63,919 nucleotides of DNA from Gemmatimonadaceae bacterium (GTDB lineage: Bacteria > Gemmatimonadota > Gemmatimonadetes > Gemmatimonadales > Gemmatimonadaceae). The stretch lies in the NCBI GenBank assembly GCA_035253645.1, contig DATFBW010000257.1, positions 1 through 63,919 of the forward strand. Direction: 5' to 3'. The position numbers and the translations under genes are program-made. This document shows positions 32-63,830 of the stretch, piece after piece. Below the pieces are notes generated by a model. The model saw only the letters and a program-made list of their open reading frames with translations, made no database searches and was not told where the DNA came from. Numbering within the stretch: the first letter of the stretch is position 1; every line of letters starts with the position of its first letter.

Positions 32-844
32 GTGCCCTCGATGGCCCAGGCAGCCGTCGTGGGCCAGGATGAGATTTTCGACCAGATCCAGGCCACGTTT
101 TTCCGCGGCACGAATGCCCTGCGCCTGCAGTTCGATGACACCGGTACCTTCGATCTATGGGACGATGCCAGAGTGATCGTCTGGTACCCGAAAGATGGTT
201 GTCAGCCGGACGTGGCACGGGCTGACCTTGTAGGGCGAGTCCTTCCACTCGCGCAACACGAGCGCGGCCTCATCGCCTTGCACGCGAGTGCCGTTTGTCT
301 GCCAGCCGGCACGATCGCGTTCATGGCGCCCAAGAACTACGGCAAGAGCTCACTCGCCATGTCTCTCGTTACCGAGCATCAGGCGCAACTCCTCACAGAC
401 GATACGCTCATCGTTTCGCCCGGTCGAGGCGTTGCGGTTCCCGGCGTGCATAGCGTTAGGCTCTGGGGCGAAACGGCGCGGCGCTTCGAAGGACTTGGGA
501 GGGGACGTCCTGTTCTGAGCGAGAAGGAGATCTTCGAAGACTTGCCGCAGACGTCGCTCGCAATGCAGGAATCGCCACTCGTGGCGCTCTATACGATCGT
601 GCCTGAAGAGCCACAAATGACGCCCGTCGTGCGCCGCGAAGCACTGGACGGCGCTCACGCGACGATAGCGCTCATCCAATACCAGAAACTTGGTGCACTC
701 CTCGGCGGGCCGGACGCGGCTCAGGTTTTCGACCGCGCGGCGGCACTCGCGGCGCGTTGTCCGGTTTACGCGCTTCATATCGCTCGCGACTGGGCGCGCT
801 TGCCGGAAGCGGCACGCGTACTCGCGGACTGGCACGCTCGTTAG
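32..844 (+). CDS. HPr kinase/phosphorylase-like (HprK-related) P-loop kinase; the frame is open to the window start, so it may be 5' truncated
   Basis: 270-aa ORF. Walker-A-like APKNYGKS (nt 326-349) is followed by LLTDDTLIV, as in HprK C-terminal domains. The TAG stop lies inside a CGTTAGGC octamer. Located near a lasso-cyclase-like gene. Confidence 0.5.
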   Translation: MPSMAQAAVVGQDEIFDQIQATFFRGTNALRLQFDDTGTFDLWDDARVIVWYPKDGCQPDVARADLVGRVLPLAQHERGLIALHASAVCLPAGTIAFMAPKNYGKSSLAMSLVTEHQAQLLTDDTLIVSPGRGVAVPGVHSVRLWGETARRFEGLGRGRPVLSEKEIFEDLPQTSLAMQESPLVALYTIVPEEPQMTPVVRREALDGAHATIALIQYQKLGALLGGPDAAQVFDRAAALAARCPVYALHIARDWARLPEAARVLADWHAR

Positions 845-851
845 GCAGTGC

Positions 852-1925
852 TCAGGCGAGCAGCGCGGCGATGCGCCGGGCCGCTGTGCCGTCTCCAAAG
901 ATCTGCGGTGAGGTGCCTGGGGGTTTTCGTGCGGCACGGGCGGCCGCGACGATGGCCATCGGGTCCGAACCTGCCAGCACGTTCCACCCCGTGTTGACCG
1001 TCTCCACCCACTCGGTTTCCGGACGCAGCGTCACGCACGGCACCTGGAAGAAGAACGCTTCCTTCTGGACGCCGCCCGAGTCGGTCAGGATCACTCGCGC
1101 GTGCTTTTCGAGCGTCAGCATGTCGAGATATCCAACGGGATCCACGAGCCGCACGTGGCGCCGCGCGTTGTTGTGCGCGCCGAGGCGGGCACGTGTACGT
1201 GGGTGCAGCGGGAAGATGACGGGCTCGCCGATGGCGTCCAGCGCGTGGAGCAGCCGCTCCAGCACCGCGGGATCGTCGGTGTTGTATGCGCGGTGCACGG
1301 TCGCGAGCAGGTACGCGCCGGGGAGCACGCCTAACGAGTCGAGTACACGCGATCGCTGCTGCGCGCGTTGCGCGAAGTGCAAAACCGAATCGTACATCAC
1401 ATCGCCAACCAGATGCACGCCACGCGCAATCCCTTCACGCGCCAGGTTGTCGACGGCCGTCTGCGTAGGACAGAAGAGGAGGTCCGCACAGTGATCTGTC
1501 AGAACACGGTTGTGTTCCTCCGGCATCGTGCGGTTGAAGGAGCGCAATCCTGCCTCCACGTGCGCCAACGGAACGCCCAGCTTCACCGCCGCCAGCGCAG
1601 CCGCCAACGTCGTGTTGGTGTCACCGTACACCAGCGCGTAATCTGGCCGCTCGTCCACGAGTGTGCGCTCGACGGCGACCATCATGCGTCCCGTTTGCTC
1701 CGCGTGAGATCCCGAGCCGATCGCGAGGAAGTGGTCCGGCGGCGCAATCCCCATCTCGCTGAAGAACACATCGGACATTTGCGGGTCGTAGTGTTGGCCC
1801 GTGTGCACAATGACTTCGTTATGCCCCGCTTCTTTCAGCGCGACACTCACTGGAGCTGCTTTGATGAACTGCGGCCGAGCGCCGACGATCGAGGCGACCT
1901 TCAAACGCCCTCCTCTGTGGGGCAT
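852..1925 (-). CDS. wecB: UDP-N-acetylglucosamine 2-epimerase (non-hydrolysing)
   Basis: N-terminus KVASIVGARPQFIKAAP, plus HTGQHYD, GDTNTTLAAALAA and HVEAGLRSFN motifs typical of WecB/MnaA. ATG at 1925 chosen over the longer ORF start at 1955. Confidence 0.85.
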   Translation of the reverse strand: MPHRGGRLKVASIVGARPQFIKAAPVSVALKEAGHNEVIVHTGQHYDPQMSDVFFSEMGIAPPDHFLAIGSGSHAEQTGRMMVAVERTLVDERPDYALVYGDTNTTLAAALAAVKLGVPLAHVEAGLRSFNRTMPEEHNRVLTDHCADLLFCPTQTAVDNLAREGIARGVHLVGDVMYDSVLHFAQRAQQRSRVLDSLGVLPGAYLLATVHRAYNTDDPAVLERLLHALDAIGEPVIFPLHPRTRARLGAHNNARRHVRLVDPVGYLDMLTLEKHARVILTDSGGVQKEAFFFQVPCVTLRPETEWVETVNTGWNVLAGSDPMAIVAAARAARKPPGTSPQIFGDGTAARRIAALLA

Positions 1926-1982
1926 CAGTGCGTGAGGACGATGCCGCGTGCGCAAAGGGAACGCCAGAGATAGCCTTACGAC

Positions 1983-3881
1983 ATGACCGCCATCGTCGGC
2001 CTCTTTGGAATCGGCGCGCGCGAAAGCGCAACGCTCGTCCGAGCTGCCCTGACCGTCATGGGGCCGCGTGGAAGCGACCGCGTGGAGACCTGGGTAGAAG
2101 ACGATTTGGCGTTAGGCGCCGTGTCCGACCACTGGGAAGTCGGCGGCGCTACCGACGCCTCCGCCCGCGTCGCGTACAATGCAGCCGCGGCAGTCGCCTG
2201 CGACGCATCGCTCTACTACCTCAGCGACCTTCGGAGCGCGCTCCAGGCAACTGGCGCGACCCCAGCCACGGACTCTCCCGCTGGGCTCATCCTGGCGGCA
2301 TACAGCGTTTGGGGAGAGCGGTGTGTCGATCACATCGAAGGAGATTTTGCGTTCATCCTGTGGGACCGTCAGGCGCGGAAAGTAGTTGCGGCCCGCGACC
2401 ACGCCGGTACGCGGCCGCTGTTTTATAGCGTTTTCCCCAGCGGCCTCGTGGTGGCGTCGCGCCTGGACGCCCTAACGAGTATCCCGCAGTTCAACCGTGC
2501 GTTCAACCTCATGTCGATCGCCGACGACGCGCTTTTTCTGCGTGTCAACGCCCCCGAGGCGACGGCGTACCGCGATGCCGCACGATTGCCTGCGGCACAT
2601 TGCCTAACGTGGACTGCCGGTACCAGTCCACGCGTTTCGCGCTGGTGGGACGTGCCGATCTTTTTGCGCGGCGACGGGCCGCCATTCGCTGAGGCACTGG
2701 AAGAATTACGCCGGCTGCTGATTGCCGCAGTCGCCGAACGATCGAGGCATCCCGGCGGAACGGCTATCTGGCTGAGCGGCGGTTACGACTCTTCAGCCCT
2801 CTTTGCCGCATCGCATTTGGCCGCGGAAAGGGGCGTGCCGCCGGCGCAACCAATCTCGATATCGCATCCACCTGGCGATCCGGGTCGCGAAGATGAGTTG
2901 ATCGAAAGCTCGACCCGCTTTTGGCGCGTCACTCCCACGTGGCTGGACGTCGATGACGTGCCTTCGCTCGTTGCTCCCGTCGCAGCCGCGCGCGTGCGCG
3001 ACGAGCCGTTCTACCACATTTATGAATTGTCGAATCGTGCGCTTGCTCACACGACTCGTGAGGCAGGGCTGCGCGCCGCGATCGTCGGCAACGGCGGGGA
3101 CCAGTTCTTTTCCGCCGGTGTTGCGCGGCTAGCCGATCACTTTCGTCGCGGTCATTTCAACACTCTCGTCCGTGAGTGGCGCGAAGCAGGCGGCGGTAGA
3201 GATTGGCGCCTATTCGTGCGGACAGTCGTTATGCCCAACATGCCGACTCTCGTGCTCGCCGTTGCGAGCGGGCTACGACAAAAGCGCACGATGCAACAGA
3301 GGTTGACACGTCGATTACCGGCCTGGACAAACGGAAAATTCGGCGACCTCGACGCACTGCAGACCCTGAATAGGGCAGGCTTGAAGCGCAGGACTGGCGA
3401 GGGTCACGCGGCCGTCGAACAGAGTTGGTTCTTGCGCCACGTAACGGGGGAGCGGATAAACGCTGCCTATACCGCGACCGGCCTGCTCGACGGTATCGAA
3501 GTGAAATCCCCCTTCTTTGACTCACGCGTGCTTCGTTTTGCAGCTGGCAGGCCTCTTGATGAGAGCTACGCAAGACAGGAGAACAAGAGACTTCTGCGGG
3601 GCGCGTTTCGCGGTCACCTGCCGGATGAGGTAATAGGCCCACGGGCGGCGCGCACCGGGCTTCCTTACCGGTCGTTACGCCGAGCGGCTTCAGAGCATGC
3701 AGCGTGGGTAGTAGCCGAGGGGCAAGGGGGTATGATACTTGCTGACTTCGGCGTGATAGACGGAAGCAATTTCCTCAGTTCAGCCGGCCGTATAGCTGAG
3801 CAGGGGGTTGCTGACGTGGAAGAAGCTGCCGCTCTTGTGGCGTGTACGCAGGTGGAGTGTTGGTTGCGTGCCCGTTCGTAG
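1983..3881 (+). CDS. Asparagine synthetase B homologue lacking the N-terminal Cys nucleophile; candidate lasso peptide cyclase (C protein)
   Basis: 632 aa. It starts MTAIVGLFG rather than MCG. It has GDFAFILWD...ARDHAGTRPLFY and the PP-loop WLSGGYDSS. A precursor-like small ORF lies 105 nt downstream. Confidence 0.7.
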   Translation: MTAIVGLFGIGARESATLVRAALTVMGPRGSDRVETWVEDDLALGAVSDHWEVGGATDASARVAYNAAAAVACDASLYYLSDLRSALQATGATPATDSPAGLILAAYSVWGERCVDHIEGDFAFILWDRQARKVVAARDHAGTRPLFYSVFPSGLVVASRLDALTSIPQFNRAFNLMSIADDALFLRVNAPEATAYRDAARLPAAHCLTWTAGTSPRVSRWWDVPIFLRGDGPPFAEALEELRRLLIAAVAERSRHPGGTAIWLSGGYDSSALFAASHLAAERGVPPAQPISISHPPGDPGREDELIESSTRFWRVTPTWLDVDDVPSLVAPVAAARVRDEPFYHIYELSNRALAHTTREAGLRAAIVGNGGDQFFSAGVARLADHFRRGHFNTLVREWREAGGGRDWRLFVRTVVMPNMPTLVLAVASGLRQKRTMQQRLTRRLPAWTNGKFGDLDALQTLNRAGLKRRTGEGHAAVEQSWFLRHVTGERINAAYTATGLLDGIEVKSPFFDSRVLRFAAGRPLDESYARQENKRLLRGAFRGHLPDEVIGPRAARTGLPYRSLRRAASEHAAWVVAEGQGGMILADFGVIDGSNFLSSAGRIAEQGVADVEEAAALVACTQVECWLRARS

Positions 3882-4196: not shown

Positions 4197-5174
4197 CTAG
4201 ACGCCAGTGACCGCCGGCGTGGAACGTCCGCGCAGAAAATACCACAGGCCCAGAGGCGCGAGACCGAGCAAGAGCAGGCGCCACGAGAGCATAGCCTCCG
4301 CCCCTCCTTCAAGCCCCGCGATGCGGAACAGGGACTCGAACGCAGCCTCACCCACACCTAAACCCCCGGGCGTCACCGGGATGTTGTTGGCGACGAATCC
4401 CAAGGAAGCGAGGAACGGCACGGCCATTGTCGCCTCACCGGCATTTGGGTTGGTGATGACGACGAGCAACCAGACGATACCCATGCTGAGCGCATGGGCT
4501 ACCAGCGAGATCCCGACAGATCCTGCGAGGATTCGAAGATGCCGCCGGAAATTCTGCATCGTGTTGAGCATCAGCGCCGGGTAGCCGCGCAGCGGAAACG
4601 TGCGCAGAACCCATTGCACGCCACCGAGCGCGCGGGCGCGACGCGACGTTGATACGGCCACCGCGAAAATGATCAGCAACGAGCTCAACGCCGCGAGCAA
4701 CAGCAGCATGCGCAGCAGTGCGGACTCTCTGATCAAGGGCAAACACAGTGGCGCGGCGATAATCGGAAATAGCGTCAACGCGAGGAGACCCATCACGCGA
4801 TCGAGCAGAAGGAGGGTCCCTATCTCGGTCCGCCTCCCCGCGGCTCCCTGTGTCGTGTAGAACAAACGCACGATGTCGCCCCCTCCTCCGGGCAGCACGA
4901 GCGTAAACAGGTTCGCAATCAGCGAAAGCCCGAGCGAATCGCGCAGCGTCAGACGCATACCACTCGGCTGAAAGAGCAGGCACACGCGCTGCGAGATCAG
5001 AACGACGACGATGAAAAGGAGACAGAGAGCGAGAAGAGTCAGGCCCCAGTGGCTTGTCATCCCGCGTAACGAGCTCCAGTCGACTCGTCCAGTACGCGCG
5101 AGAAAACCGAGCACGGTGCCGGCGATGGCCAGCCTAACGATGCCGAGCCAAATACGCCTTTGGCGCGTCGTCAT
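4197..5174 (-). CDS. UPF0104 / LPG-synthase-TM family polytopic membrane protein (flippase-like domain)
   Basis: 325 aa, multi-TM, with the family signature region NNIPVTPGGLGVGEAAF near the C-terminus. Confidence 0.65.
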   Translation of the reverse strand: MTTRQRRIWLGIVRLAIAGTVLGFLARTGRVDWSSLRGMTSHWGLTLLALCLLFIVVVLISQRVCLLFQPSGMRLTLRDSLGLSLIANLFTLVLPGGGGDIVRLFYTTQGAAGRRTEIGTLLLLDRVMGLLALTLFPIIAAPLCLPLIRESALLRMLLLLAALSSLLIIFAVAVSTSRRARALGGVQWVLRTFPLRGYPALMLNTMQNFRRHLRILAGSVGISLVAHALSMGIVWLLVVITNPNAGEATMAVPFLASLGFVANNIPVTPGGLGVGEAAFESLFRIAGLEGGAEAMLSWRLLLLGLAPLGLWYFLRGRSTPAVTGV

Positions 5175-5821
5175 GCGGGTTGGACGCTCGCTGACTCTGT
5201 CAGATCGCGAACGTAGAGATTGGCGTGCAGTCCGTACCGTTCAATCGAATGCAGGAACTGAAAGCCATGTTTGCGATAGAACGCGTTGGCCAACGGATCC
5301 CCCGGCGTCACGCAGGCTTTAACAGAAGCCGCGCCGGACTCACGCAATGTAGAAAGTGCGTTTCGCAGGAGCAGACTTCCCACCGTCCCTCGCTCGGGCA
5401 ATTTGCGTCCGCGATACTCTGGCCTGACCGCGATCGACAGCAACTCCGCGGAGACATCGGGGGCCGGCTCGGACCGCGGCACCAATACGGACCGCGCGAT
5501 ACGCGCGGCTAGACGCCAGCGCTGCCGGCTGGGAAGGATCGACCAAAACAGCGTCGCGGCGAAGGCAAATGCGTGATGTCGCAAGGCGGAGCGTAACAGG
5601 CGGACAGTAGACGGCGTGTAAGACAGGTATCCGACGAGTACATCGTCTGCGAAGTATCCGTCGCACAGGTAGAGTGGCTCGCCGAACATCGTCCGATGGT
5701 ACAGAACATTGAACGAGGGACCGAGGCGCGCCGAGAGGGTGTCAGGGAGTGACTGGTGTTGCAGCTCCAGGAGAGCGTCAAGGTCAGCAAGTGAGAGGCG
5801 ATGTATGCCCGCTCGCCTCAT
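5171..5821 (-). CDS. GNAT family N-acetyltransferase
   Basis: C-terminal GNAT fold motifs (RGRKLPERGTVGSLLL...ANAFYRKHGFQF). ATG at 5821 forms an ATGA overlap with the upstream stop at 5818-5820, so the longer ORF to 5917 was rejected. Confidence 0.65.
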   Translation of the reverse strand: MRRAGIHRLSLADLDALLELQHQSLPDTLSARLGPSFNVLYHRTMFGEPLYLCDGYFADDVLVGYLSYTPSTVRLLRSALRHHAFAFAATLFWSILPSRQRWRLAARIARSVLVPRSEPAPDVSAELLSIAVRPEYRGRKLPERGTVGSLLLRNALSTLRESGAASVKACVTPGDPLANAFYRKHGFQFLHSIERYGLHANLYVRDLTESASVQPA

Positions 5822-6687
5822 CGCGCGGCGGTGGGGTTTCCGGTGAAGGGCGCCAGGAGCTCCGCGGTGCTCGTTATGCGGAATCGTTTCTGAACGAAAC
5901 GGACCATCCGCGAACACGCGTCGCGTTTCGCGGCCGCGCTCCGTATGGAGAGCGTGAACAGCTTCATGCGCGCGTCACGACAGTACTCAGACTCGAGCGG
6001 ATCGCTGAAGTCGATGAGGTGGAAGAGAAGCACCGTTGGAGTCCCGCGCCGGGCCGCGCGCGACATCGCCCAGTAAAAGGGGGGAAGTCCAAACGCCAGC
6101 GCGAACGACGGCCCGATCGGCGAGGATAGGGGGACAGGGCCGGGGAGCGGCAATTCCACGATGCCGCCGAAGGACGTTAGGCGTTGGGGTCGGATGAGCT
6201 CACGTCGTGGCCGTCCGAGTCGTTTCTCGAATGTAGCGGTAGGGAAGACCGATGAGTCGAACACATAACCGGCGGACGCGGCGATTGTGAGCGCTTCGCC
6301 GTCCATGGCGTATCCCGGTGCGCGAAAACCGATAACGCGCACGGCGAACGCGTTCTCGATGAGGGCCTTGCTCTCGGCGATCTCGCGCTCCTTCTCCTGC
6401 CGCGTTAGGCGCATGAGGTTCGGGTGGCTCACGGTATGCGACGCGAGCTCGTGACCCAACGACACCGCCTCTTGCAACAGGGCGTGCTTCGCCGGATCCC
6501 GGACATCTTCGGCGATGACGAACAGCGTCGCCGTGATTCCAAAGTCGGAAAACAGCTGCAGCATGTTGCGAACGCCGCTGGTGAAGATCGGGTCTCCCGG
6601 CCCGCCATATGTACGGCCGTGGGCGCGGAAGATCTGATGCGCACCGTCCAGGTCGACGTGCACAGCGAGCGGTTGTGGCGCGTTCAC
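5818..6687 (-). CDS. Polysaccharide deacetylase (NodB homology domain)
   Basis: HVDLDGAH, TLFVIAEDV and GHELASHTVSHPNL motifs. GTG at 6687 overlaps the upstream TGA (GTGA). Confidence 0.8.
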   Translation of the reverse strand: MNAPQPLAVHVDLDGAHQIFRAHGRTYGGPGDPIFTSGVRNMLQLFSDFGITATLFVIAEDVRDPAKHALLQEAVSLGHELASHTVSHPNLMRLTRQEKEREIAESKALIENAFAVRVIGFRAPGYAMDGEALTIAASAGYVFDSSVFPTATFEKRLGRPRRELIRPQRLTSFGGIVELPLPGPVPLSSPIGPSFALAFGLPPFYWAMSRAARRGTPTVLLFHLIDFSDPLESEYCRDARMKLFTLSIRSAAAKRDACSRMVRFVQKRFRITSTAELLAPFTGNPTAAR

Positions 6688-8378
6688 GGGCCCACCACGC
6701 GCTCGTATATACGAATCGGTGGATTCACGACGGGGTGGTCGAGCGCGGGCCGGCGTGCCCACGGCAGAAGCGGCCGAGTTTGGAAGAACGCCACGCGGCG
6801 ATAACCTAACGAGCCGTCCTCGAGAGCTCGATAAATAGCCGGAGGACACGTCGCCGCGTGAGGAGCGCCCGGGTAACTCGTATAGTCGGGAACGAGCGCG
6901 ACAAACCGCGGACGTCGCTCGCGCCAACCGTCAATGATCGTCTGTATCGCTGTTGCGCCTGTATCCGCCCGAAAGGTACTCCCGCGAAACGGGATGGCTT
7001 GACGAGAAGTCAGCGACGCCGGCATCGGCGGATGTTTGTGCTCGGACCCGAAGTATTCGAGGGCGTCGCCAGGCCGGGCGTTGCGGGCTATCCAGGCGCC
7101 GGCTGCATAACGCGAGTCCCGTACCATCCCATAGGTGAGGTCGGTGGCCCAGAGGGCAAGGATGATCACGGCGGCTCCCGCCACAGCCGCAGTGGCCCAC
7201 CTGATCGTCGGGATGCTGCGCCAGCCGGTTACGACCGCGTAGCCGGCGTACAAGGCCAGCACAAAGGTGATTGGCAATACGTAGCGCAATTGGATCACGC
7301 GCGCCGACACGAACAGGATGACGAGATACACGAGCGCGGAATAGGCGAGCAGCACACTGCGGCGGTTCCGCCTGGCTGCCAGGATAAGGCCGCCGATGCC
7401 TAACGCCAAACCGGGGAGGGACATGGCGTTCCCCAGCAGCGCGACAATCTGCGCAGCCAGGGAGACGTGGCCGCTCCAGGTGAACGGGTAATACGTCGTG
7501 AATATCACTCCACCCGAACGCGCCAACTGTGTGCGTTCACGGATGAACGTGAGATGCGCTTGCCAGCGCGCGAAGTCGATGACGAGTCCACTGCCGATGG
7601 CATAGGCACCCAGAGCTGCCGCCGTCGCAAGCGTGGCAGTGCGCCAGAACCCCGGCTGCATCCAGTACCGCTCTCTTTCGCCCGGATCGCGCATGAACGG
7701 CAGCACCAGCGGAACGAACGCGAACGACGCGAATGAGGGTTCTTTTGTTGCGACCGCACATCCGACCAGCGCCCCCAGGACCACGGCGCGCCGAGTCGTT
7801 AGGCCGCGTTTCGCGATGAGCGCAAAGGCCCACAACCCCGCCGCCGTGAAGAACAACACGGGAACGTCCACATTCGAATTCCGGGCATAATAAAACATCG
7901 GATACACCAGCATCGCGAAGATCGCGGCCACGACCCCCGTTGTCTCGTCCCACATCTCGCGCGCGATGCCGTACGCACAAATCACGATACCCACGCCCAA
8001 CAGCACAGATAAGAAATGCGCGATCCAGGTGAGGTGCTTGAGCGCGGCGACCGGATCGTCGAAGCCATGCGGGTACGCCACGGTCGGTTTTTCGAGTCCG
8101 CCCGTTGCCGCGAGGTAGCCTATGTATGGCGCGAAGGACCCCAGCACCATGAACGGATGCAACATGGGGTAACCGAGGTTCGGATTCATCTCGGCTTTCG
8201 GCGCGATAATGTCGTGCGCCTGAGCGAGCGGCCCTAACGGGGGTTCGTCATCCACCCCCCACGCATTGGTGCGATCTGCCGCGGTGGCGTGCGGAGCCCC
8301 CCACCAGAACGCCGGTGTGTAGAGCAGGAGCGCGACGATCCCCAGGAGCAACGCACTGCGCGGCCAGCCTGACCGCAC
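6684..8378 (-). CDS. GT-C fold membrane glycosyltransferase (ArnT/PMT family 39-like)
   Basis: About 12 TM segments. The first periplasmic loop WGVDDEPPLGPL carries acidic residues. It sits in an operon with a deacetylase and a GNAT. The start is uncertain (GTG 8378 chosen; the ORF extends to 8456). Confidence 0.55.
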   Translation of the reverse strand: MRSGWPRSALLLGIVALLLYTPAFWWGAPHATAADRTNAWGVDDEPPLGPLAQAHDIIAPKAEMNPNLGYPMLHPFMVLGSFAPYIGYLAATGGLEKPTVAYPHGFDDPVAALKHLTWIAHFLSVLLGVGIVICAYGIAREMWDETTGVVAAIFAMLVYPMFYYARNSNVDVPVLFFTAAGLWAFALIAKRGLTTRRAVVLGALVGCAVATKEPSFASFAFVPLVLPFMRDPGERERYWMQPGFWRTATLATAAALGAYAIGSGLVIDFARWQAHLTFIRERTQLARSGGVIFTTYYPFTWSGHVSLAAQIVALLGNAMSLPGLALGIGGLILAARRNRRSVLLAYSALVYLVILFVSARVIQLRYVLPITFVLALYAGYAVVTGWRSIPTIRWATAAVAGAAVIILALWATDLTYGMVRDSRYAAGAWIARNARPGDALEYFGSEHKHPPMPASLTSRQAIPFRGSTFRADTGATAIQTIIDGWRERRPRFVALVPDYTSYPGAPHAATCPPAIYRALEDGSLGYRRVAFFQTRPLLPWARRPALDHPVVNPPIRIYERVVGP

Positions 8379-55281: not shown

Positions 55282-56402
55282 CGACGCCGCTGACCACGCC
55301 AGTGTGCTCGGTGGTGATGCCGGCCCACGGAGCGGGCCGGTACCTCCCGGAAACGTTAGGTGCGCTCGTCGCGAGTGACCTTCCGCGCGAGTCGTGGGAG
55401 CTCATTGTCGTTGATGACGGCTCCCTTGACGAAACCGCGGCGGTGGCTGGGCGCTTTGCCGATACGGTGATCCGCCTTCCGGGCCGGCCGCACGGCCCGG
55501 CCTACGCTCGTAACCGTGGCTTCGAGGTGGCGCGCGGTCCGGTGGTTGTGTTTTTCGACGCGGACGTCGTGGTGCATCGGGATACGCTCCGCCGCCTGCT
55601 CGACGCGCTCGCGGCCAATCCGGATGCCGGGGCGATTTTTGGCGCGTATGACACGACACCGCGCGCCCCGGGGTTGGTATCGCAGTATCGGAATCTCATC
55701 CATCACTACGTGCATATGCGCGGGGCGGGCGAGGTAGACACGTTCTGGGCAGGAGCGGGTGCCGTACGGCGCGACGTCTTCGAGGAAGCCGGAATGTATG
55801 ACGAGTGGCACTACGCCCGGCCGCAGATCGAGGACATCGAGCTCGGGGCGCGGATTCGCGCGTTAGGCAAGCGCATCCTGCTCATGCCGCACATTCAGGT
55901 GACCCACCTCAAGAAATGGTCGCTTGGAAACGTCGTGCGCACGGATTTGCGGGATCGAGGGATACCCTGGGCGCGTTTGCTCGCGCAGCGCGGCGCGGCT
56001 CTCAGCGCCAAATCCCTGAACCTCAGGTGGACCGAACGGCTCTTCACAGCACTTGTTTGGTTAGCCAGCTTGCTCATCATTCTGGCCGTCATCACAACCA
56101 CGCCGTGGCTGATCGCCCTCGCTGTGGTGTTGGTGATACCTGTCATCGCGCTCAATTGGTCGCTGTGGAGTTATATGGCGCGCTTGCGCGGCATCTTCTT
56201 CGCCATCGCGATTATCCCGCTCCACTTGATGTACTATGCGCTCAACGGCATTTCGTTTTTGCTCGGTCTGCTGCTCCAGCAAACCGTGGGTGCTCCCGTT
56301 CCAGACCCGACGACCGCGGCGTATGCCGAGGTCGGCGTGCAGCGCTGGCCACCTATTCCCCGGCGCCATCGACGCAGCACGTGGGTCGAATCGGATGACT
56401 AG
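55278..56402 (+). CDS. GT2 glycosyltransferase with C-terminal TM helices
   Basis: CSVVMPAHGAGRYL, LIVVDDGSLDET and FFDADVVVH, with three or more C-terminal TM segments. ATGA overlap with the upstream gene. Confidence 0.8.
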   Translation: MTTPLTTPVCSVVMPAHGAGRYLPETLGALVASDLPRESWELIVVDDGSLDETAAVAGRFADTVIRLPGRPHGPAYARNRGFEVARGPVVVFFDADVVVHRDTLRRLLDALAANPDAGAIFGAYDTTPRAPGLVSQYRNLIHHYVHMRGAGEVDTFWAGAGAVRRDVFEEAGMYDEWHYARPQIEDIELGARIRALGKRILLMPHIQVTHLKKWSLGNVVRTDLRDRGIPWARLLAQRGAALSAKSLNLRWTERLFTALVWLASLLIILAVITTTPWLIALAVVLVIPVIALNWSLWSYMARLRGIFFAIAIIPLHLMYYALNGISFLLGLLLQQTVGAPVPDPTTAAYAEVGVQRWPPIPRRHRRSTWVESDD

Positions 56403-56420: not shown

Positions 56421-56822
56421 ATGACTATGCCGAAGCTCGTCGAGCCCGGCGAGAAGATTCAGGAAGTGGACGAAGCGAGCCTGACGGAAGCCCTCGAACT
56501 GGCGTTCGCTCCGCTCAACAAACTCGCTTTCGGCGTCGCGCTGGGTTGCGCGGGTGCGCTCTCGATGGTGCTTGTCACTGTCGCCGTCCTCGTTACAGAC
56601 CGGGCGCAGGAGTTCCCGTTAGGCCTGCTTGGCCAATACCTGGCCGGTTATACAGTATCCTGGCCTGGCGTCCTCATCGGGGCCGGTTGGGGCTTCGCGG
56701 TGGCATTTGTCGCGGGTTGGTTTTTCGCGTTTTGCCGCAACGCCGCGCTCGCAATCACTGCATTCGCCATTCGGACCCGGGCGGAGCTGCTGCAAACGCG
56801 CGACTTTCTCGATCACATTTAG
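56421..56822 (+). CDS. Small two-TM membrane protein (133 aa), paralogue of the next gene
   Basis: GGAGG 6 nt upstream of the ATG. TM1 is LAFGVALGCAGALSMVLVTVAVLV and TM2 is GVLIGAGWGFAVAFVAGWFFAF. Confidence 0.45.
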   Translation: MTMPKLVEPGEKIQEVDEASLTEALELAFAPLNKLAFGVALGCAGALSMVLVTVAVLVTDRAQEFPLGLLGQYLAGYTVSWPGVLIGAGWGFAVAFVAGWFFAFCRNAALAITAFAIRTRAELLQTRDFLDHI

Positions 56823-57144: not shown

Positions 57145-58248
57145 GTGGGAGACACGTTTCGCGTTGGAATCGTCGGTCTCGGAAACGCGGCGCAATCGCT
57201 GCACCTGCCGGCACTCAAAGGCATCCCGAACGTAACAATCGTCGGCGGAGTGGACTCCGACCCGCAGCGGAGGCACGACGCGTCGGCGCGCTGGCGCCTA
57301 ACGAGCTACGAGGACGTCAGCCAGCTCATGACGTCCGCGAGTCCCGACGTCGTGATCGTGTGCACACCGCCCGAAACACACGTCACTGTAGGCAGCGCCG
57401 CGCTCGAGCTGGGTGCCCATCTGATTTGCGAGAAGCCTATCGCCCCGTCTGTCGCCGAGGCGGAGCGCCTGCTCGACGCCGCACGACGTTCAGGACGCCG
57501 CATCGCGATGAATCACGAGTTCCGCGAGATGCCCGCCTTTCGCGCGGTGCGTGATGCGATCGGCGCCGATGCCAGCGGTCTGGTGTTCGCCCAAGCCTGG
57601 CAGCTCATGAACCTTCCGCCGTGGGCGGAGCCCGGGTGGCGCGGCCAGCTCATGAAGGGCGTGTTATACGAAGCCGGCATCCACCTCGTGGATTATCTCG
57701 TCGCGCTGTTCGGGGCGCAGCCGCGCAGCGTGAACGCAACCATGTCAACGTGCGGCGTTAGGGATGACGACACGGATGCCGTTGCCGTCGTGACGCTCGA
57801 GTTTCCGTCCGGGGCGCTCGGGCAGATCGTGCAGCATCGACTTTGTCCCGGGGAGACGCAGTACTTCGAGGTGCGCGCCGATACTCGTAAGGCATCGTAC
57901 CGTGTCTCGTACGGTGGCCGTGCGCGCGTGAGCGCGGGGTTGTTGCGGAGCACCGCGCCTCATGTACGGTTCGAGCTTGGCGCGAGCGGTCTGGCGTGGC
58001 GCGAAACGGGCCCCAAGCGCACGATCATCGGCCGCAACCCCAAGGACGCGCCGATGGTCGCGACGCGGCTCTTGTTGGAGCGCACATTCGAAGCCTTCCG
58101 GCGCGGGTCGCCGGCTCCTGCGTCGGGCGAAGATGGTCGCGATGCCGTGCGCGTGGTTGCCGCGAGTTATGTCTCGGCCCGAGAAGGAAGGCGCGTTGAT
58201 ATGGCCGGGCACAAGGAAATAGAGCGCCTAACGATGGTGGCGTCCTGA
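57145..58248 (+). CDS. Gfo/Idh/MocA family NAD(P)-dependent oxidoreductase
   Basis: FRVGIVGLGNAAQSLHLPAL N-terminal Rossmann motif and EKPIA. Confidence 0.85.
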   Translation: MGDTFRVGIVGLGNAAQSLHLPALKGIPNVTIVGGVDSDPQRRHDASARWRLTSYEDVSQLMTSASPDVVIVCTPPETHVTVGSAALELGAHLICEKPIAPSVAEAERLLDAARRSGRRIAMNHEFREMPAFRAVRDAIGADASGLVFAQAWQLMNLPPWAEPGWRGQLMKGVLYEAGIHLVDYLVALFGAQPRSVNATMSTCGVRDDDTDAVAVVTLEFPSGALGQIVQHRLCPGETQYFEVRADTRKASYRVSYGGRARVSAGLLRSTAPHVRFELGASGLAWRETGPKRTIIGRNPKDAPMVATRLLLERTFEAFRRGSPAPASGEDGRDAVRVVAASYVSAREGRRVDMAGHKEIERLTMVAS

Positions 58249-58319: not shown

Positions 58320-59138
58320 TTACCAGCCGCGATATTTGAGAAGGACGGCGGGTACCGTTCGCACCATGATCCGCAGATCGAGCAGAAGACTCTGTCTCCG
58401 CAGATAATCCAGATCGAAGCTTACCTTGCTGCGCACGTCATCGAGACACGCGTCATACTGCTGGTTGATCTGCGCGAGACCCGTTAGGCCGGGGCGCACG
58501 CGATGACGCGATCCGTAGTCCGGGATATCGCGCTGGAGTCGCGCGACGATGCTGGGACGCTCGGGCCGCGGCCCCACGATGTTCATGTCGCCGCGCAGGA
58601 TATTCCACAGCTGCGGCAGCTCGTCGAGGCGCAGCACGCGCAGGTACCTGCCTAACGGCGTCACGCGCGGGTCATTTTCCTTGGCCCATACGGCGCCGGA
58701 TTTGGCTTCGGCGTCGACGCGCATCGTGCGGAACTTGTAGATCGTGAAGACGGCGCCACCGAGGTCGCGCACGCGCCGATCGTGCATTGCCAACGTTTGG
58801 CGCCAGCGACGGTCGAGGCCGACGCGCGTTTGTGCATAAAGGATCGGACCGCGCGAGGTGAGCTTGATGATGATGCCGATAACGAGCAGCAACGGCGCCG
58901 TGATCAACAGGCCCAGCGCGGCGAGCACAACGTTAAGCGTGCGATTCAACGCCTCAGCCCGTACGCGCGGAACAACGCCCTGAGGAACTGGTTCTTTGGA
59001 CGCGTCGTACGTGACAATGCGCTCGAACGGTATAGTCGCGTCAGGCGTTGTGCGGCGCGCCCGGCGTGGCAAAACAGGACCGTTCAACGCGGACGTCAGC
59101 GCGCGCTCTTCGGCCGGCGTCAAGCTAAGACCTGACAT
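58320..59138 (-). CDS. Polyprenyl-phosphate sugar-1-phosphate transferase (bacterial sugar transferase, WbaP/EpsB type), initiating enzyme
   Basis: LYAQTRVG, YKFRTM, DELPQLWNILRGDMNIVGPRPERP and GLTGLAQI. Confidence 0.9.
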   Translation of the reverse strand: MSGLSLTPAEERALTSALNGPVLPRRARRTTPDATIPFERIVTYDASKEPVPQGVVPRVRAEALNRTLNVVLAALGLLITAPLLLVIGIIIKLTSRGPILYAQTRVGLDRRWRQTLAMHDRRVRDLGGAVFTIYKFRTMRVDAEAKSGAVWAKENDPRVTPLGRYLRVLRLDELPQLWNILRGDMNIVGPRPERPSIVARLQRDIPDYGSRHRVRPGLTGLAQINQQYDACLDDVRSKVSFDLDYLRRQSLLLDLRIMVRTVPAVLLKYRGW

Positions 59139-59162: not shown

Positions 59163-59951
59163 TCAATTGCGTACTGCGATCCACCGAACGGTGAACAACA
59201 ACGTTGTAACGATGGGCAAGATGGTCCAAAATCGGTTTGTCTGTGCTGTGAATTTCTCGGCAATACGCAATTCGTCGCCGTCCCGAAGCCCCAGATCGCC
59301 TATTGTTTTGCCTGTGCGCAATGCGCGTGCCGTAGCACCCCGATCGACAAGTACGCGCGTGCCACGTCGAATCTCTGCTTTGTTCATTTCGGAATTCTGC
59401 CCAGGTCCACCGACAGACATGATTGCATCGGACAACGTCTGGTCGGTTTCAAATTGATACCAGCCGGGCTGGGCTATTCCACCACTCAGTTGAAGCCTAA
59501 CGAGTGGTGTCGCGCTCACATCGGGATCGCGGATGTACTTCGCGATGTGGGTCTTGAGATGGCCGAGCAGCTCCGAATCGAGGACGCCCGCAAGCGAGAG
59601 CTGGGGAAGCGTTCCGAAATCGATCATGCGTCCCTGTTTGACCGTGAACGTGTCGCTGACGGTCGTGTCGTTGAGCACGCGAATCACAATCCGATCGCCG
59701 GGATAGAAGTCGCCGGTTCGCAGGCGCTCACGAACTGCCGCCGCGTCGCTCATCGCCTGTTCCTTGACACGTTTGTCCGTCGTGCTCGCCGCCAGCCTTT
59801 CATAGCTCGTGAGCGTCGATTCGAGTTCGGCTCGCGTCATCTGACGCCGAAGCTCGCCATAACTAGGCTGGGCGCCGACGGGCCCCACTGCCAGAGCAGT
59901 TAGCAGCAGCCCGGTCACATACCGGGCGATCAGATTCGTACGCATAGACAT
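59163..59951 (-). CDS. Polysaccharide export protein (Wza/Poly_export plus SLBB domains)
   Basis: Signal peptide, YPGDRIVIRV...DTFTVKQGRMIDFGTLPQLSLAGV, and a second SLBB-like GDELRI. Confidence 0.8.
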   Translation of the reverse strand: MSMRTNLIARYVTGLLLTALAVGPVGAQPSYGELRRQMTRAELESTLTSYERLAASTTDKRVKEQAMSDAAAVRERLRTGDFYPGDRIVIRVLNDTTVSDTFTVKQGRMIDFGTLPQLSLAGVLDSELLGHLKTHIAKYIRDPDVSATPLVRLQLSGGIAQPGWYQFETDQTLSDAIMSVGGPGQNSEMNKAEIRRGTRVLVDRGATARALRTGKTIGDLGLRDGDELRIAEKFTAQTNRFWTILPIVTTLLFTVRWIAVRN

Positions 59952-61451: not shown

Positions 61452-61525
61452 AGGAGCGAGGGGCAGGGAGCGAGGAGCAGGGGAAGCGTTAGGTTCGCTC
61501 CCCAATCCCCGCTCCTATTCTTTTG
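61452..61525. terminator. GC-rich hairpin between convergent genes (probable bidirectional terminator)
   Basis: GGAGCGAGGGG...GGGGAAGCG-ttaggtt-CGCTCCCC...CCCCGCTCC followed by TATTCTTTT. The loop carries a CGTTAGGT motif variant. Confidence 0.5.
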
Positions 61526-63830
61526 CAGCTCCGATCAACCCTGTTCCCTCTTCCTCGACAGGGGCGTACTCGTACCCGAGGTACGAGTAGTACCGATACG
61601 TCGCATCGTTGCCGACGTCGTTGAGCACGGTGCCGATGAGACGCACCGGGAGTCGATCGATCGTTCCGAGCTTCGCCTGCGCGAGTTTCGTGTCGGTTTC
61701 GCCGGCACGGAGCACGATGAGCATCGCACCAGATGCCGCGCCTAACGCGTACGGATCGATCCCGGCGGCCAGCGGCGCGGAATCGATGATGACGGCGTCG
61801 AACTGCGTGCGCAGCTCCGCGACGAGGCGCTGCATGGCCTCCGAGGCGAGCAGCTCGGGACCTTGCCGGCGGCGCGAACCGCACGGAATGACGCACAGGT
61901 TCGCATGTGTGGTCTCACGCACGACCTCGGCCAGCGTCGCCTCACCGGCGAGGTGCTCGACGAGCCCCGGCGTCTGACTGCACTCGACAAGCGGCTTCGT
62001 CTCGTGCAGCCGCCCTCGCCGGATGTCGCCGTCGACGAGGATCGTGCGGAAGCCCGCCTCCGCCATCACCATCGACAGGTTGAGCGAGATGAAGGACTTG
62101 CCATCCCCAGGCCCGGGGCTCGAGATCGTGAACGCGACGGGCTCGTTCGGCGGGAAGGCGCTGCGGACGCTCAGGCCTAACGAACGAAACGCCTCCATGA
62201 GCTGCGACCACTCTTCGAGCCGCGCCGCCGAATTCTTGGGATTCCGGAATGACGGGATCGCACCGAGGATATCCAAACCGAGCTCGCCGACCGCCTGCTC
62301 GGGATAGCGGAAGCGCTTGTCCAGGCGGTCGAGCACCAACGCCAGGAAGATGCCCGCGCCTAACGAGGCCGCGACGGCGATCAGAAAGAGCGCCTGCGCC
62401 GTATCGGTCTGCGGCCGCCCCGGCGGTACGGCGCGCTCGAGCACCGAGACGTCGGGTTGCACGCTGGCCTCCGCCAACTTCGCGGCGATCGTGCGGCTGT
62501 GGAGCTCGTTATAAACCTGCACCGCAACCTGGTAGTTGCGGTTCAGGCGATCTTCTTCGATCGACCGCGTGGGGATCTGTTCCAGCTCCTTCCCCGCGGA
62601 GCGGACGCGCAGCGACAGGTCCCGTTCACGCGACCGCAGCTGATTGAGCGAAATCGTCGCGAGTGTGGGAATGTCCTGCGTTTCCAGCTGCCGGATAGTC
62701 TTGCGCAGGTTGATGATGACGCTATGGGAATCGGTCTTGGTTTGCTGCTCGACGCGCAGCTTATTGCGGTACGTGTCAAGATCGGTGATCGCAACCGTGA
62801 GATTAGGGTTGCTGGCCACGAGGCTCGGAATGAGACGCAGTTTCTCGATCCAGCCGGTGCCGCCAGCACGTCGCTCGGCGAGCACTTCCTCGACAAGCTC
62901 ACGGTCCTGCTTGATGCCGCCTAACGTCATCCGGTCGCCGAAATACGACGCGAACACAGGGTTTTGCGCGATCTGCACGCCCGGCGCGACCGGAATGTTG
63001 TCGGACGGCAGAGTGATCGTGCGGATGCGATAGCCTTCGAGCAACTTGGCCGTCGTCGCGAGGTCGCGGGCAGCCGACTGACGCTGTTCCTCCAAGGTCT
63101 TGTAGCTCTGCGTGAGATCGGCCTTCTTGAGTCTTGTCGCGGCTTCCAGGAATACGTCCAGAATTGTGTTCATCGTGCTCGCGAGGAACACGGGCTCGGT
63201 CCCTTGCAGCATCAACCGCATCAAGTTGCTGGTCTCGGGCAAGATGACCGTGAGTTGGCGCAGGATGCGCCCCGACGCCTCGCGCGGGACAACGAGGTTG
63301 AAGTTCAGCGGCCGGTCGCTGGGCATGGCCGTCCAGTTAGGCACCCACGCAACCCCGATCGTGCGTCCGACGGAATCACCCACGATTCCTTGCTCGATGA
63401 CTCTGTTCACACCTTCGCCCCGCGGCCCCTCGATACGCGTGAGCACGTACTTCATGTTCTCCCTGCTCAGCTGATAGGCACCAGGGATCAGCGTGTCGGT
63501 CGGCTGCATCCCCCGCAGCACAACCGTGTCGCGCACGTGCTCGGGTGTGGCGAACAATGCGAGCCTAACGACAACCGAATCCAGCACGGCCTGACTCATA
63601 ACGAGGTCGGCCCAGCTCAGATTCGTCGATACCAGACCCGGTGGCTGAATCGGCCCCGACTGGCTGCCCGTCTTCTCGCGGATCCAAACACTCGAGTTCA
63701 CCTGGAACTTGGGCGGGATCATTTGCGTGAGCCCGAAACCACCTGCGCTCCCGAATAACGTCGTCGCGAGAATCAGCCACTTGTATCGCTTGAGCGCCGC
63801 GATGGACCGCTGTAGTGCGTTGCCCAGCAT
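61515..63830 (-). CDS. Polysaccharide co-polymerase / tyrosine autokinase (Wzc/GumC type)
   Basis: N-terminal Wzz chain-length domain with 2 TM helices. Walker A SSPGPGDGKS. C-terminal Tyr-rich tail YRYYSYLGYEY. Confidence 0.9.
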   Translation of the reverse strand: MLGNALQRSIAALKRYKWLILATTLFGSAGGFGLTQMIPPKFQVNSSVWIREKTGSQSGPIQPPGLVSTNLSWADLVMSQAVLDSVVVRLALFATPEHVRDTVVLRGMQPTDTLIPGAYQLSRENMKYVLTRIEGPRGEGVNRVIEQGIVGDSVGRTIGVAWVPNWTAMPSDRPLNFNLVVPREASGRILRQLTVILPETSNLMRLMLQGTEPVFLASTMNTILDVFLEAATRLKKADLTQSYKTLEEQRQSAARDLATTAKLLEGYRIRTITLPSDNIPVAPGVQIAQNPVFASYFGDRMTLGGIKQDRELVEEVLAERRAGGTGWIEKLRLIPSLVASNPNLTVAITDLDTYRNKLRVEQQTKTDSHSVIINLRKTIRQLETQDIPTLATISLNQLRSRERDLSLRVRSAGKELEQIPTRSIEEDRLNRNYQVAVQVYNELHSRTIAAKLAEASVQPDVSVLERAVPPGRPQTDTAQALFLIAVAASLGAGIFLALVLDRLDKRFRYPEQAVGELGLDILGAIPSFRNPKNSAARLEEWSQLMEAFRSLGLSVRSAFPPNEPVAFTISSPGPGDGKSFISLNLSMVMAEAGFRTILVDGDIRRGRLHETKPLVECSQTPGLVEHLAGEATLAEVVRETTHANLCVIPCGSRRRQGPELLASEAMQRLVAELRTQFDAVIIDSAPLAAGIDPYALGAASGAMLIVLRAGETDTKLAQAKLGTIDRLPVRLIGTVLNDVGNDATYRYYSYLGYEYAPVEEEGTGLIGAAKE

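Follow-up and report, generated by a model that had tools for sequence, protein, structure and literature searches.

To our knowledge, a hyperabundant specific short DNA word is known in three bacterial groups only, the Neisseriaceae, the Pasteurellaceae and the cyanobacteria, and in these groups such words provide a handle on the recognition of own versus foreign DNA. The DNA uptake sequence (DUS) of the Neisseriaceae is a 10-12-mer with a CTG core that is read by the minor pilin ComP, the uptake signal sequence (USS) of the Pasteurellaceae has a 9-bp core (AAGTGCGGT / ACAAGCGGT) with AT-rich flanking segments, and the cyanobacterial highly iterated palindrome (HIP1), GCGATCGC, has known cognate methyltransferases and occurs in one phylum only. 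DUS and USS are present in thousands of copies, form dialects and show graded importance of their positions, and molecular drive through uptake bias has been described as the source of such words (PMC3630211, PMC3458573). HIP1 is found in 15-300-fold excess and is conserved at orthologous sites (PMC5861425); it enhances natural transformation (10.1101/2024.09.10.611283), an effect reported when the word is methylated (10.1101/2024.09.10.611283; 10.64898/2026.06.24.733823). Here we describe a fourth case of a hyperabundant short word, in two abundant and barely cultured soil phyla. It is the non-palindromic octamer CGTTAGGC, whose reverse complement GCCTAACG is a different word, in a 63,919-nucleotide stretch of Gemmatimonadaceae DNA (contig DATFBW010000257.1 of assembly GCA_035253645.1; hereafter the window). 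The octamer falls within the known class of DUS, USS and HIP1, and what is new is that it is non-palindromic yet flankless, that it occurs in phyla without a described case, and that its dialects extend across two phyla. Our tentative reading, which we hold without great confidence, is that CGTTAGGC is a tag, spread over the genome and specific to the lineage, by which DNA is recognised in the manner of an uptake sequence.

An exact search and an independent script found 83 copies in the window, 37 of CGTTAGGC on the plus strand and 46 on the minus strand, which appear as GCCTAACG on the plus strand, or about one per 770 bases (83 copies in 63.9 kb). This is in exact agreement with the coordinates given in a preliminary description of this DNA, which had also estimated a more than 30-fold excess. 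The octamer was expected 1.53 times (standard deviation 1.18, maximum 6) in 100 dinucleotide-preserving shuffles of the window, 2.5, 1.7 and 1.7 times under Markov models of order 0, 1 and 2, and 2.0 times when the encoded proteins and the codon usage of the window were kept constant. The ratio of observed to expected copies is therefore far above 1 even against a codon-aware background, with an excess of about 35- to 55-fold at a G+C content of 63.2%. It is the commonest 8-mer in the window, where no other word is comparably enriched except its own sub-words and extensions. Its specificity is steep and slightly tolerant at the word ends. Sites with one flank changed, first put at about 48, are real but number 46 (27 of CGTTAGG followed by a base other than C and 19 of GTTAGGC preceded by a base other than C), and in both phyla the inner GTTAGG is strict while one-base variants are in surplus at the octamer's two ends. 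The 12 bases on each side hold almost no information, C being slightly favoured at -2, G/T at -1 and G/A at +1, consistent with the earlier view that nothing is conserved beyond the 8 bp.

Coding copies are read in four open frames, Leu-Gly (xCG-TTA-GGC, 36 copies), Leu-Thr (xGC-CTA-ACG, 20), Val-Arg (xxC-GTT-AGG-Cxx, 11) and Pro-Asn (xxG-CCT-AAC-Gxx, 8). The preliminary description had named all four, but had missed that the remaining frame on each strand, which holds TAG or TAA within the octamer, is also used: five genes stop on it (sites 839, 17153, 18187, 45640 and 48531). Altogether, 79 of the 83 copies lie inside or overlap open reading frames (ORFs), and the intergenic occurrence reported earlier amounts to four copies that are fully intergenic. 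The copies are given below with coordinates, strand and reading; L121 and L123 are two word-rich relatives compared further on.

454..461 (+), Val-Arg, ORF 2..844(+)
839..846 (+), TAG is the stop of ORF 2..844(+)
1329..1336 (-), Leu-Gly, UDP-GlcNAc 2-epimerase gene 852..1955(-)
2110..2117 (+), Leu-Gly as xCG-TTA-GGC, ORF 1983..3881(+)
2602..2609 (-), Leu-Thr, ORF 1983..3881(+)
5132..5139 (-), Val-Arg, ORF 4197..5174(-)
6175..6182 (+), Leu-Thr, ORF 5818..6927(-)
6403..6410 (+), Leu-Thr, ORF 5818..6927(-)
7398..7405 (-), Leu-Gly, ORF 6684..8456(-)
7797..7804 (+), Leu-Thr, ORF 6684..8456(-)
8809..8816 (-), Val-Arg, ORF 8378..10108(-)
9305..9312 (-), Leu-Gly, ORF 8378..10108(-)
9689..9696 (-), Leu-Gly, ORF 8378..10108(-)
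10654..10661 (-), Leu-Gly, ORF 10105..10782(-)
10753..10760 (-), Leu-Gly, ORF 10105..10782(-)
13667..13674 (+), Leu-Thr, ORF 13193..13921(-)
13909..13916 (+), Pro-Asn, ORF 13193..13921(-)
15677..15684 (-), Val-Arg, asparagine synthase gene 13974..15947(-)
16295..16302 (+), Pro-Asn, ORF 16017..17153(-)
17153..17160 (+), TAA on the minus strand is the stop of ORF 17155..18186(-)
17728..17735 (+), Leu-Thr, ORF 17155..18186(-)
18187..18194 (-), TAG is the stop of ORF 18189..20114(-)
19683..19690 (-), Leu-Gly, ORF 18189..20114(-)
19781..19788 (-), Val-Arg, ORF 18189..20114(-)
20125..20132 (+), intergenic, divergent spacer
23277..23284 (-), Leu-Thr, ORF 22655..25264(+)
23389..23396 (+), Val-Arg, ORF 22655..25264(+)
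24129..24136 (+), Leu-Gly, ORF 22655..25264(+)
25366..25373 (+), Leu-Gly, ORF 25293..25949(+)
25972..25979 (-), Pro-Asn, ORF 25946..26641(+)
26352..26359 (+), Leu-Gly, ORF 25946..26641(+)
27952..27959 (+), Leu-Gly, ORF 26673..28145(+)
28156..28163 (-), Pro-Asn, ORF 28142..30193(+)
28515..28522 (+), Leu-Gly, ORF 28142..30193(+)
29766..29773 (+), Leu-Gly, ORF 28142..30193(+)
30165..30172 (-), Leu-Thr, ORF 28142..30193(+)
30418..30425 (+), Leu-Gly, ORF 30177..31085(+)
30919..30926 (+), Leu-Gly, ORF 30177..31085(+)
32456..32463 (+), Leu-Gly, ORF 32110..33072(+)
32993..33000 (-), Leu-Thr, ORF 32110..33072(+)
33365..33372 (+), Leu-Thr, ORF 33062..34078(-)
34336..34343 (-), Leu-Gly, ORF 34075..35094(-)
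35709..35716 (-), Leu-Gly, ORF 35073..36416(-)
36287..36294 (-), Val-Arg, ORF 35073..36416(-)
36495..36502 (-), intergenic
37314..37321 (-), Leu-Gly, ORF 36564..37973(-)
38639..38646 (-), Leu-Gly, ORF 37970..39214(-)
39268..39275 (+), Leu-Thr, ORF 38989..39759(-)
39935..39942 (+), Leu-Thr, ORF 39764..41116(-)
40154..40161 (-), Leu-Gly, ORF 39764..41116(-)
41425..41432 (+), Leu-Thr, ORF 41056..41892(-)
42444..42451 (-), Pro-Asn, ORF 42118..43800(+)
42719..42726 (+), Leu-Gly, ORF 42118..43800(+)
43073..43080 (+), Leu-Gly, ORF 42118..43800(+)
43298..43305 (+), Leu-Gly, ORF 42118..43800(+)
44753..44760 (-), Leu-Thr, ORF 44725..45645(+)
45180..45187 (+), Val-Arg, ORF 44725..45645(+)
45640..45647 (-), TAA is the stop of ORF 44725..45645(+); in the loop of a GGATGC/GCATCC hairpin with no T-run after it
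45876..45883 (-), intergenic
46073..46080 (-), Leu-Thr, ORF 45994..47688(+)
46484..46491 (+), Leu-Gly, ORF 45994..47688(+)
46664..46671 (+), Leu-Gly, ORF 45994..47688(+)
47129..47136 (+), Leu-Gly, ORF 45994..47688(+)
48531..48538 (-), TAA is the stop of ORF 47847..48536(+)
49533..49540 (-), Leu-Thr, ORF 49439..51067(+)
50242..50249 (-), Pro-Asn, ORF 49439..51067(+)
51322..51329 (-), Leu-Thr, GT4 gene 50982..52250(+)
52156..52163 (+), Leu-Gly, GT4 gene 50982..52250(+); kept in L121 and L123
52414..52421 (-), Pro-Asn, GT4 gene 52013..53521(+); window only
52942..52949 (-), Pro-Asn, GT4 gene 52013..53521(+); kept in L121 and L123
55861..55868 (+), Leu-Gly, GT2 gene 55089..56402(+); common to L123
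56617..56624 (+), Leu-Gly, ORF 56421..56822(+); kept in L121 and L123
57296..57303 (-), Leu-Thr, GFO/IDH gene 57145..58248(+); common to L121
58226..58233 (-), Leu-Thr, GFO/IDH gene 57145..58248(+); common to L123
58482..58489 (+), Leu-Thr, sugar transferase gene 58320..59138(-); window only
58650..58657 (-), Leu-Gly, sugar transferase gene 58320..59138(-); kept in L121 and L123
59495..59502 (-), Val-Arg, polysaccharide export gene 59163..59951(-); kept in L121 and L123
60357..60364 (-), intergenic, divergent spacer
61740..61747 (-), Leu-Gly, wzc 61515..63830(-); CGTTAGGT in relatives
62175..62182 (-), Leu-Gly, wzc 61515..63830(-); kept in L121 and L123
62358..62365 (-), Leu-Gly, wzc 61515..63830(-); GGTTAGGC in L123
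62919..62926 (-), Leu-Gly, wzc 61515..63830(-); window only
63563..63570 (-), Val-Arg, wzc 61515..63830(-); kept in L121 and L123

The extent to which proteins allow the word was gauged from compatible sites, that is, places where synonymous codons could spell the octamer with the protein sequences fixed. In the window 75 of 193 such sites (39%) carry it, where codon usage predicts 2.0, and the Hamming distances of the 193 sites to the octamer are bimodal (75 at 0, 42 at 3), so that compatible sites are either converted or untouched. The response is graded, being 37-fold where a perfect match can be reached, 2.5-fold where only seven of eight bases can (best match realised 89 times versus 35.8 expected) and 1.0-fold where only six can. 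Occupancy was 47/134 with one coding strand and 28/59 with the other, which is not a significant difference. The octamer alone accounts for about one third of the TTA codons and one fifth of the CTA codons of the window, and its longest absences (10796-13164, rmlB/rmlA-like genes, and 20266-22398, a formyltransferase/GT2 region of lower G+C) arise because few word-compatible peptides occur there (3, 3, 0 and 1). Use of both strands, four open frames, stop codons and spacers, together with this filling of compatible sites, supports the conclusion, already drawn in the preliminary description, that the signal lies in the DNA word and not in a peptide or RNA. Regulation through TTA codons and RfaH ops/JUMPstart elements were likewise ruled out by occurrence in several frames, on two strands and across assemblies.

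The enrichment is not confined to the window. Syntenic loci of relatives, each of at most 22 kb, were obtained via their Wzc homologues, and fell into word-rich and word-poor groups:

L121 / L122, Wzc identity 81%, 1.0-1.1 octamers per kb
L123, Wzc identity 74%, 0.93 octamers per kb
L151, Wzc identity 53%, 0 octamers in 11.7 kb
L124, Wzc identity 49%, 1 octamer in 22 kb
L152, Wzc identity 44%, 4 octamers in 22 kb
L153, Wzc identity 40%, 0 octamers in 22 kb

The close relatives thus carry about one copy per kb, and in L121 this extends to housekeeping and other genes outside the polysaccharide cluster (citrate synthase, thiF/thiS and a two-component system). Among the distant Gemmatimonadaceae (Wzc 40-53%) density is 0-0.04/kb in three of four loci and 0.18/kb in one, and no replacement word was seen in the word-poor loci. 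The octamer is thus spread throughout the genome in one clade and all but missing from the relatives of that clade. The intermediate locus, L152:1-22394 (Gemmatimonadaceae-like, 67.5% G+C), has a density between those of word-rich and word-poor genomes, and its lineage may be in the course of acquiring or shedding the word.

Twelve syntenic genes (nucleotide identity 66-84%) were aligned by codon, and the alignments contain 21 positions with the octamer in at least one genome. All three word-rich genomes have it at seven of these, another seven are particular to the window, and the others are in two genomes or in one relative only. Octamers are retained identically between genomes in 53-82% of cases, the figure for other 8-mers of matching codon phase being 8-10% (p from 3e-5 to 9e-9), and are kept across about 25% nucleotide divergence. 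At octamer positions the word-poor L124 usually spells an identical or similar peptide in ordinary codons (Pro-Leu-Gly as CCG-CTC-GGG, for instance), which again speaks for selection on the DNA word. Word-compatible peptides are similar in number in the word-rich genomes (30, 32 and 23) and in the word-poor one (25), with no clear excess that would reveal a shift of the proteome towards them, and this implies that mainly synonymous changes installed the word. Of the one-base variants, some reflect decay at third codon positions (GGC turned into GGT, for instance, gives CGTTAGGT), and others are the best match that the protein permits, such as GTG-TTA-GGC. The nearly identical L121 and L122 (99.96%) differ by eight single-nucleotide polymorphisms (SNPs), two of which, at positions 2269 and 6174, fall in motif or near-motif sites (ACCTAACG/GCCTAACG and CGCTAGGC/CGCTCGGC) and hint at ongoing turnover. 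A metagenome contig from ENA, L001, is 99.86% identical to the window over 22.6 kb; none of the 31 SNPs between the two touches an octamer, and the comparison is uninformative.

A second phylum carries the same word. One genome per species in a genome collection was scanned for a pattern of three same-orientation octamers, which does not amount to a census; among the matches listed were at least eight metagenome-assembled genomes (MAGs) of Gemmatimonadaceae and at least nine of Chthoniobacterales/Spartobacteria/Verrucomicrobiae with dispersed enrichment in two orientations, and many arrays of clustered regularly interspaced short palindromic repeats (CRISPR) with the octamer in the repeat. The Verrucomicrobial assignment is consistent with the GpsA of one such locus, whose best homologues are in Spartobacteria, Chthoniobacterales and Verrucomicrobiota, and three loci on contigs of 1.45, 3.58 and 4.02 Mb from the Chthoniobacterales group have 0.5-1.0 copies/kb, in housekeeping genes. 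T precedes the octamer in 87% of Verrucomicrobial copies versus about 30% in Gemmatimonadaceae, and the Verrucomicrobial unit is therefore the 9-mer TCGTTAGGC, of which there are 166 copies in 158 kb versus about one expected (about 170-fold). Pooled sequence of the Gemmatimonadaceae type holds 282 octamers in 236 kb versus 5.7 expected, and a scan of soil metagenomes yielded 22 further loci of both dialects. The densest stretch is a soil-metagenome contig, L126:1-2960, of 65% G+C with few long ORFs (16 copies in 3 kb, 5.4/kb); another contig, L139:1-3911, of 74.8% G+C, has nine copies in 3.9 kb and may come from a third word-rich lineage. A minor word of the Gemmatimonadaceae, (T)CGTTATGC, is about five-fold enriched (15 copies versus 2 expected in the window, 29 versus 5.2 in pooled sequence), with copies in the window at, for example, 1817, 3227, 5872, 12047, 18323, 21383, 29541, 32002 and 32853 on the plus strand and 7105, 15037, 21702, 32718, 35537 and 37601 on the minus strand. 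T precedes it in 69% of cases, making its unit TCGTTATGC, and it may be a tolerated variant or a trace of another dialect. Compensation of imperfect copies by T at -1 was significant for CGTTATGC and TGTTAGGC but was not relied on, since codon phase confounds it.

That CRISPR repeats in many unrelated genomes hold the word raises the question of whether it is a remnant of a mobile or other repeat, whether CRISPR, a miniature inverted-repeat transposable element (MITE) or a repetitive extragenic palindrome (REP), or else an artefact or a product of peptide selection. The CRISPR-like arrays with CGTTAGGC in their repeats (L010, L016, L027, L045, L066, L077, L081, L098, L108 and others) belong to cyanobacteria and to MAGs of Haliangium, Nitrosopumilaceae and Gemmataceae, and one contig has well over 100 such repeats per 8 kb over tens of kb. 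In contrast, the copies described here are dispersed, irregularly spaced, on both strands, mostly in frame within ORFs and without shared or conserved flanks; they code for four different peptides and also use stop codons and spacers; and they are found again at orthologous positions in assemblies from NCBI, JGI and ENA that are independent of each other. This spread over frames, strands and assemblies rules out a REP or MITE, peptide selection and an assembly artefact. We consider this whole set of explanations to have next to no chance of being correct.

The occurrence of one word in two phyla would be readily explained by a mobile methyltransferase. The octamer would then be a HIP1-like word, (T)CGTTAGGC or its GTTAGG core being recognised by an orphan mobile enzyme, perhaps with a repair or nicking partner; the methylated word would serve strand discrimination, repair, chromosome organisation or self-recognition after uptake, and selection or biased repair would keep up its density. 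The even spacing described below would suit a repair signal, and one-base deviations concentrate at the word's two ends, as Elhai reportedly found for single-base deviations of HIP1 in 2015. The octamer length, the 50-170-fold excess and the conservation at orthologues also match reports on HIP1 (PMC5861425). The word is asymmetric, however, so a single ordinary methyltransferase would mark one strand only; no one-base neighbour is clearly depleted, unlike the prediction for repair of the very-short-patch type, although counts are low; and matches at seven of eight bases are also favoured, which is unexpected for an all-or-none enzyme site. A conserved, apparently orphan N6_N4 methyltransferase with an SPPY motif is present in word-rich Chthoniobacterales (L149:19550-20380, L150:15304-16100, L035:6082-6900, L100:6347-7123, L049:4168-4944 and L030:3491-4267); no restriction gene was seen next to it, and in L149 and L150 its neighbours are thiG on one side and an HD-domain gene on the other. 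Its gene, a recurrent match of the three-copy scan in Chthoniobacterales, has 4-5 motif copies in one orientation, but this is what the three-copy search pattern selected, and so is not independent evidence. The matches listed in a homologue search were filled up with Chthoniobacterales orthologues, a representative search combined with a cluster look-up yielded no names but those of Bacillota and Thermoplasmata (about 55% identity) and so nothing that ties the enzyme to Gemmatimonadaceae, and comparison with PDB indicated only a generic beta-class N4C/N6A methyltransferase. As the word's enzyme this protein is an unsupported candidate, and we regard a HIP1-like word as possible but doubtful. 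The genes at L150:15304-16100 and L035:6082-6900, like the TreZ gene at L035:3356-5156, are split by apparent frameshifts, probably assembly errors in MAGs taken as long-read rather than pseudogenes.

The arrangement of copies and their distribution between resident and foreign DNA bear on further alternatives. No two octamers in the window are less than 98 bp apart, and none of 5000 random placements was as well spaced; across the Gemmatimonadaceae loci there are two close pairs versus about 13 expected, with coefficients of variation (CV) of 0.63-0.82. Apart from this minimum distance the spacing is irregular, as first described, and no periodicity was found in the 64-kb window, a short stretch beside the 10-90 kb periods along the chromosome that mark HIP1-type octamers. 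Orientations in loci not chosen by pattern are 37:46, 15:8, 9:6, 6:5, 3:8 and 11:10, with no strand polarity in any unbiased locus. Chthoniobacterales stretches with IS110 transposases and hypothetical genes, including islands in L148 and L149, have almost no copies, and the IS110 insertion sequence (IS) copies themselves are without the octamer. Three scans with low-sensitivity patterns over 2.9 million viral contigs gave chance-level matches only and no contig with host-like word density.

Word-free IS copies, and scans that found no word-rich viral contig, could reflect a Chi-like 'self' signal that attenuates or redirects a RecBCD/AddAB-type or defence nuclease, such that word-rich DNA is spared or recombined and foreign DNA degraded. 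Like Chi of E. coli (GCTGGTGG) and the FtsK-orienting polar sequences (KOPS) and architecture imparting sequences (AIMS), the octamer would be a non-palindromic, over-represented 8-mer read by a DNA-processing machine. However, Chi and KOPS/AIMS are only few-fold enriched and strongly co-oriented with replication, whereas the octamer has no polarity in any locus and, at one per 0.77 kb and about 50-fold excess, exceeds Chi of E. coli several times in both density and enrichment. Phages under such pressure would also be expected to gain the word, and none was found to have done so, although the test is weak. Even with the suggestion that HIP1 acts in a way 'reminiscent of Chi' (10.1101/2024.09.10.611283), we judge a Chi-like signal improbable.

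Fairly even spacing, genome-wide and orientation-independent occurrence and conserved positions would also be expected of a binding site through which an architectural or nucleoid-associated protein organises the chromosome, a function that Xu et al. are said to have proposed for HIP1, and a graded tolerance is what binding energies between protein and DNA typically produce. The nucleoid proteins known so far prefer degenerate, AT-rich sequence and do not recognise a sharp word of 8-9 bp, and sharing between two phyla and word-free IS copies would go unexplained, so that there is in our view little likelihood of this. Equally slight is the prospect of a purely mutational origin, in which a sequence-specific repair or gene-conversion bias makes the word without any function. 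The converted positions are mostly synonymous and two of the eight SNPs between near-identical strains fall in motif or near-motif sites, as such a bias would predict, but 37-fold filling of perfect versus 2.5-fold filling of seven-base sites, at 8-9 bp specificity, is hard to obtain from local mismatch bias, and the retention of copies across about 25% divergence, the avoidance of close pairs and the unconverted resident IS copies all point elsewhere.

Taken together, the observations call for a reader that recognises duplex DNA with sharp 8-9 bp specificity and for a process that creates and preserves the word at every place open to it in the proteins, a process that acts on resident chromosomal DNA and shows no sign in IS copies or any viral contig found. 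One clade of Gemmatimonadaceae and the Chthoniobacterales possess the determinant. We infer that the reader belongs to a pathway of DNA uptake or transformation, and that the copies are built up through molecular drive and not through selection in cis. In this uptake-sequence reading, a sequence-specific protein of a DNA-acquisition pathway would bind duplex DNA with the octamer and act at uptake, or just after, where it would favour the recombination of 'self' DNA. Uptake and recombination would prefer fragments that match perfectly and, slightly, also those that match at seven of eight bases, and the repeated bias would write the word wherever proteins tolerate it, mostly in synonymous TTA, CTA, AGG and CCT codons, stops and spacers, while the same process would stop existing copies decaying. 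The 9-mer of the Chthoniobacterales would be a dialect read by a related protein, implying that the recognition determinant moved between phyla. Such a model may, with due reserve, account for most of what is seen: under it compatible sites fill up, perfect matches are preferred to imperfect ones, strand and frame make no difference, foreign DNA is spared and dialects arise. It may also converge with a HIP1-like model, HIP1 itself being reported to aid transformation when methylated.

Several observations weigh against uptake. No receptor, pilin, ComEA/ComEC or type IV pilus genes are present in the word-rich genome pieces of about 20 kb. We know of no uptake-sequence precedent for a near-identical word in two phyla, DUS and USS being family-restricted, and such sharing would come about more simply via a mobile methyltransferase or nuclease. 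Conservation of positions is only about 1.5-2 times that expected from independent saturation of compatible sites, and so does not separate drive from selection. Copies in the Chthoniobacterales loci are clustered (CV above 1), and in view of their low sensitivity the viral scans are weak evidence. Finally, inverted octamer pairs, extended flanks and an association with terminators were not found in the window. Only the copy at 45640, directly after a gene, lies in a hairpin loop; it had been described as a terminator loop, and the hairpin is indeed there, but with no T-run after it this is not a canonical terminator.

The likeness to DUS, USS and HIP1 proposed in the preliminary description consequently holds for density, equal orientations, orthologue conservation, lineage restriction and dialects, and fails for inverted terminator pairs and extended flanks. 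Like DUS, the octamer is a short non-palindromic word at about one per kb, in both orientations, within and between genes, lineage-restricted, with dialects differing at the core edge and positions of unequal weight, and missing from foreign and mobile DNA. Unlike DUS it has no inverted terminator pairs, is 8-9 rather than 10-12 bp long and spans two phyla rather than one family; that about 90% of copies are coding, also unlike DUS, is because the window is 94% coding. It resembles USS in density, mixed orientations, use of several reading frames, its two dialects, an accumulation explainable by uptake bias and recombination, and spacing, which in USS is likewise more even than random, but it is flankless and shows no clear enrichment of word-encoded peptides. 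With HIP1 it has in common that it is an octamer in large excess, at conserved orthologous sites in and between genes, with favoured single-mismatch variants and lineage variants, and differs in being asymmetric, without a known methyltransferase, and in Gemmatimonadota and Verrucomicrobiota. The function of HIP1 was long obscure and is now tied to transformation (PMC5861425; 10.1101/2024.09.10.611283; 10.64898/2026.06.24.733823). The octamer had not been recognised from any described system, and in agreement with this full-text searches for the word and its sub-words of 6 to 9 bases returned only primer and telomere papers, and searches on competence or on uptake sequences in Gemmatimonadetes gave no relevant paper.

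The window itself, which is about 94% coding, is a single long polysaccharide-biosynthesis cluster encoding glycosyltransferases, sugar epimerases and dehydratases, RmlA/B-like enzymes, two asparagine-synthase-like proteins, PMT_2 and LPG-synthase membrane proteins, deacetylases and a Wzc/GumC tyrosine kinase. The nearest homologues of this Wzc (74-86% identity) are labelled Gemmatimonadaceae bacterium, and the window therefore comes from an uncultured soil member of that family. Between the convergent ORFs 32110..33072(+) and 33062..34078(-) is a long inverted repeat of heptamers at 33055-33140 (CTAGGGG-TTAGGGG-TTAGGGG-TTAG ... CTAA-CCCCTAA-CCCCCAA-CCCCTAA-CCCCTAG), with arms of about 25 bp and a spacer of about 30 nt. 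It supplies several GTTAGG cores outside the octamer and may act as a terminator in both directions or be prone to form G-quadruplexes.

The sharp specificity of the octamer, its measurable turnover and the existence of word-rich and word-poor sisters mean that the identity of the reader (by phylogenetic profiling), biased acquisition and jumps between phyla are testable. The word is also a strong taxonomic and binning marker and a candidate additive for transforming these recalcitrant groups. It is conceivable, though we think it unlikely, that two unrelated soil phyla, with a clade of Gemmatimonadaceae on one side and many Chthoniobacterales on the other, share essentially one DNA 'password' through a horizontally transferred recognition module, which would be a receptor for uptake or else a self-marker linked to a methyltransferase. 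In that case no system of the uptake-sequence type would have been known before outside Proteobacteria and Cyanobacteria, nor one shared across phyla, and it could channel gene exchange between soil phyla.

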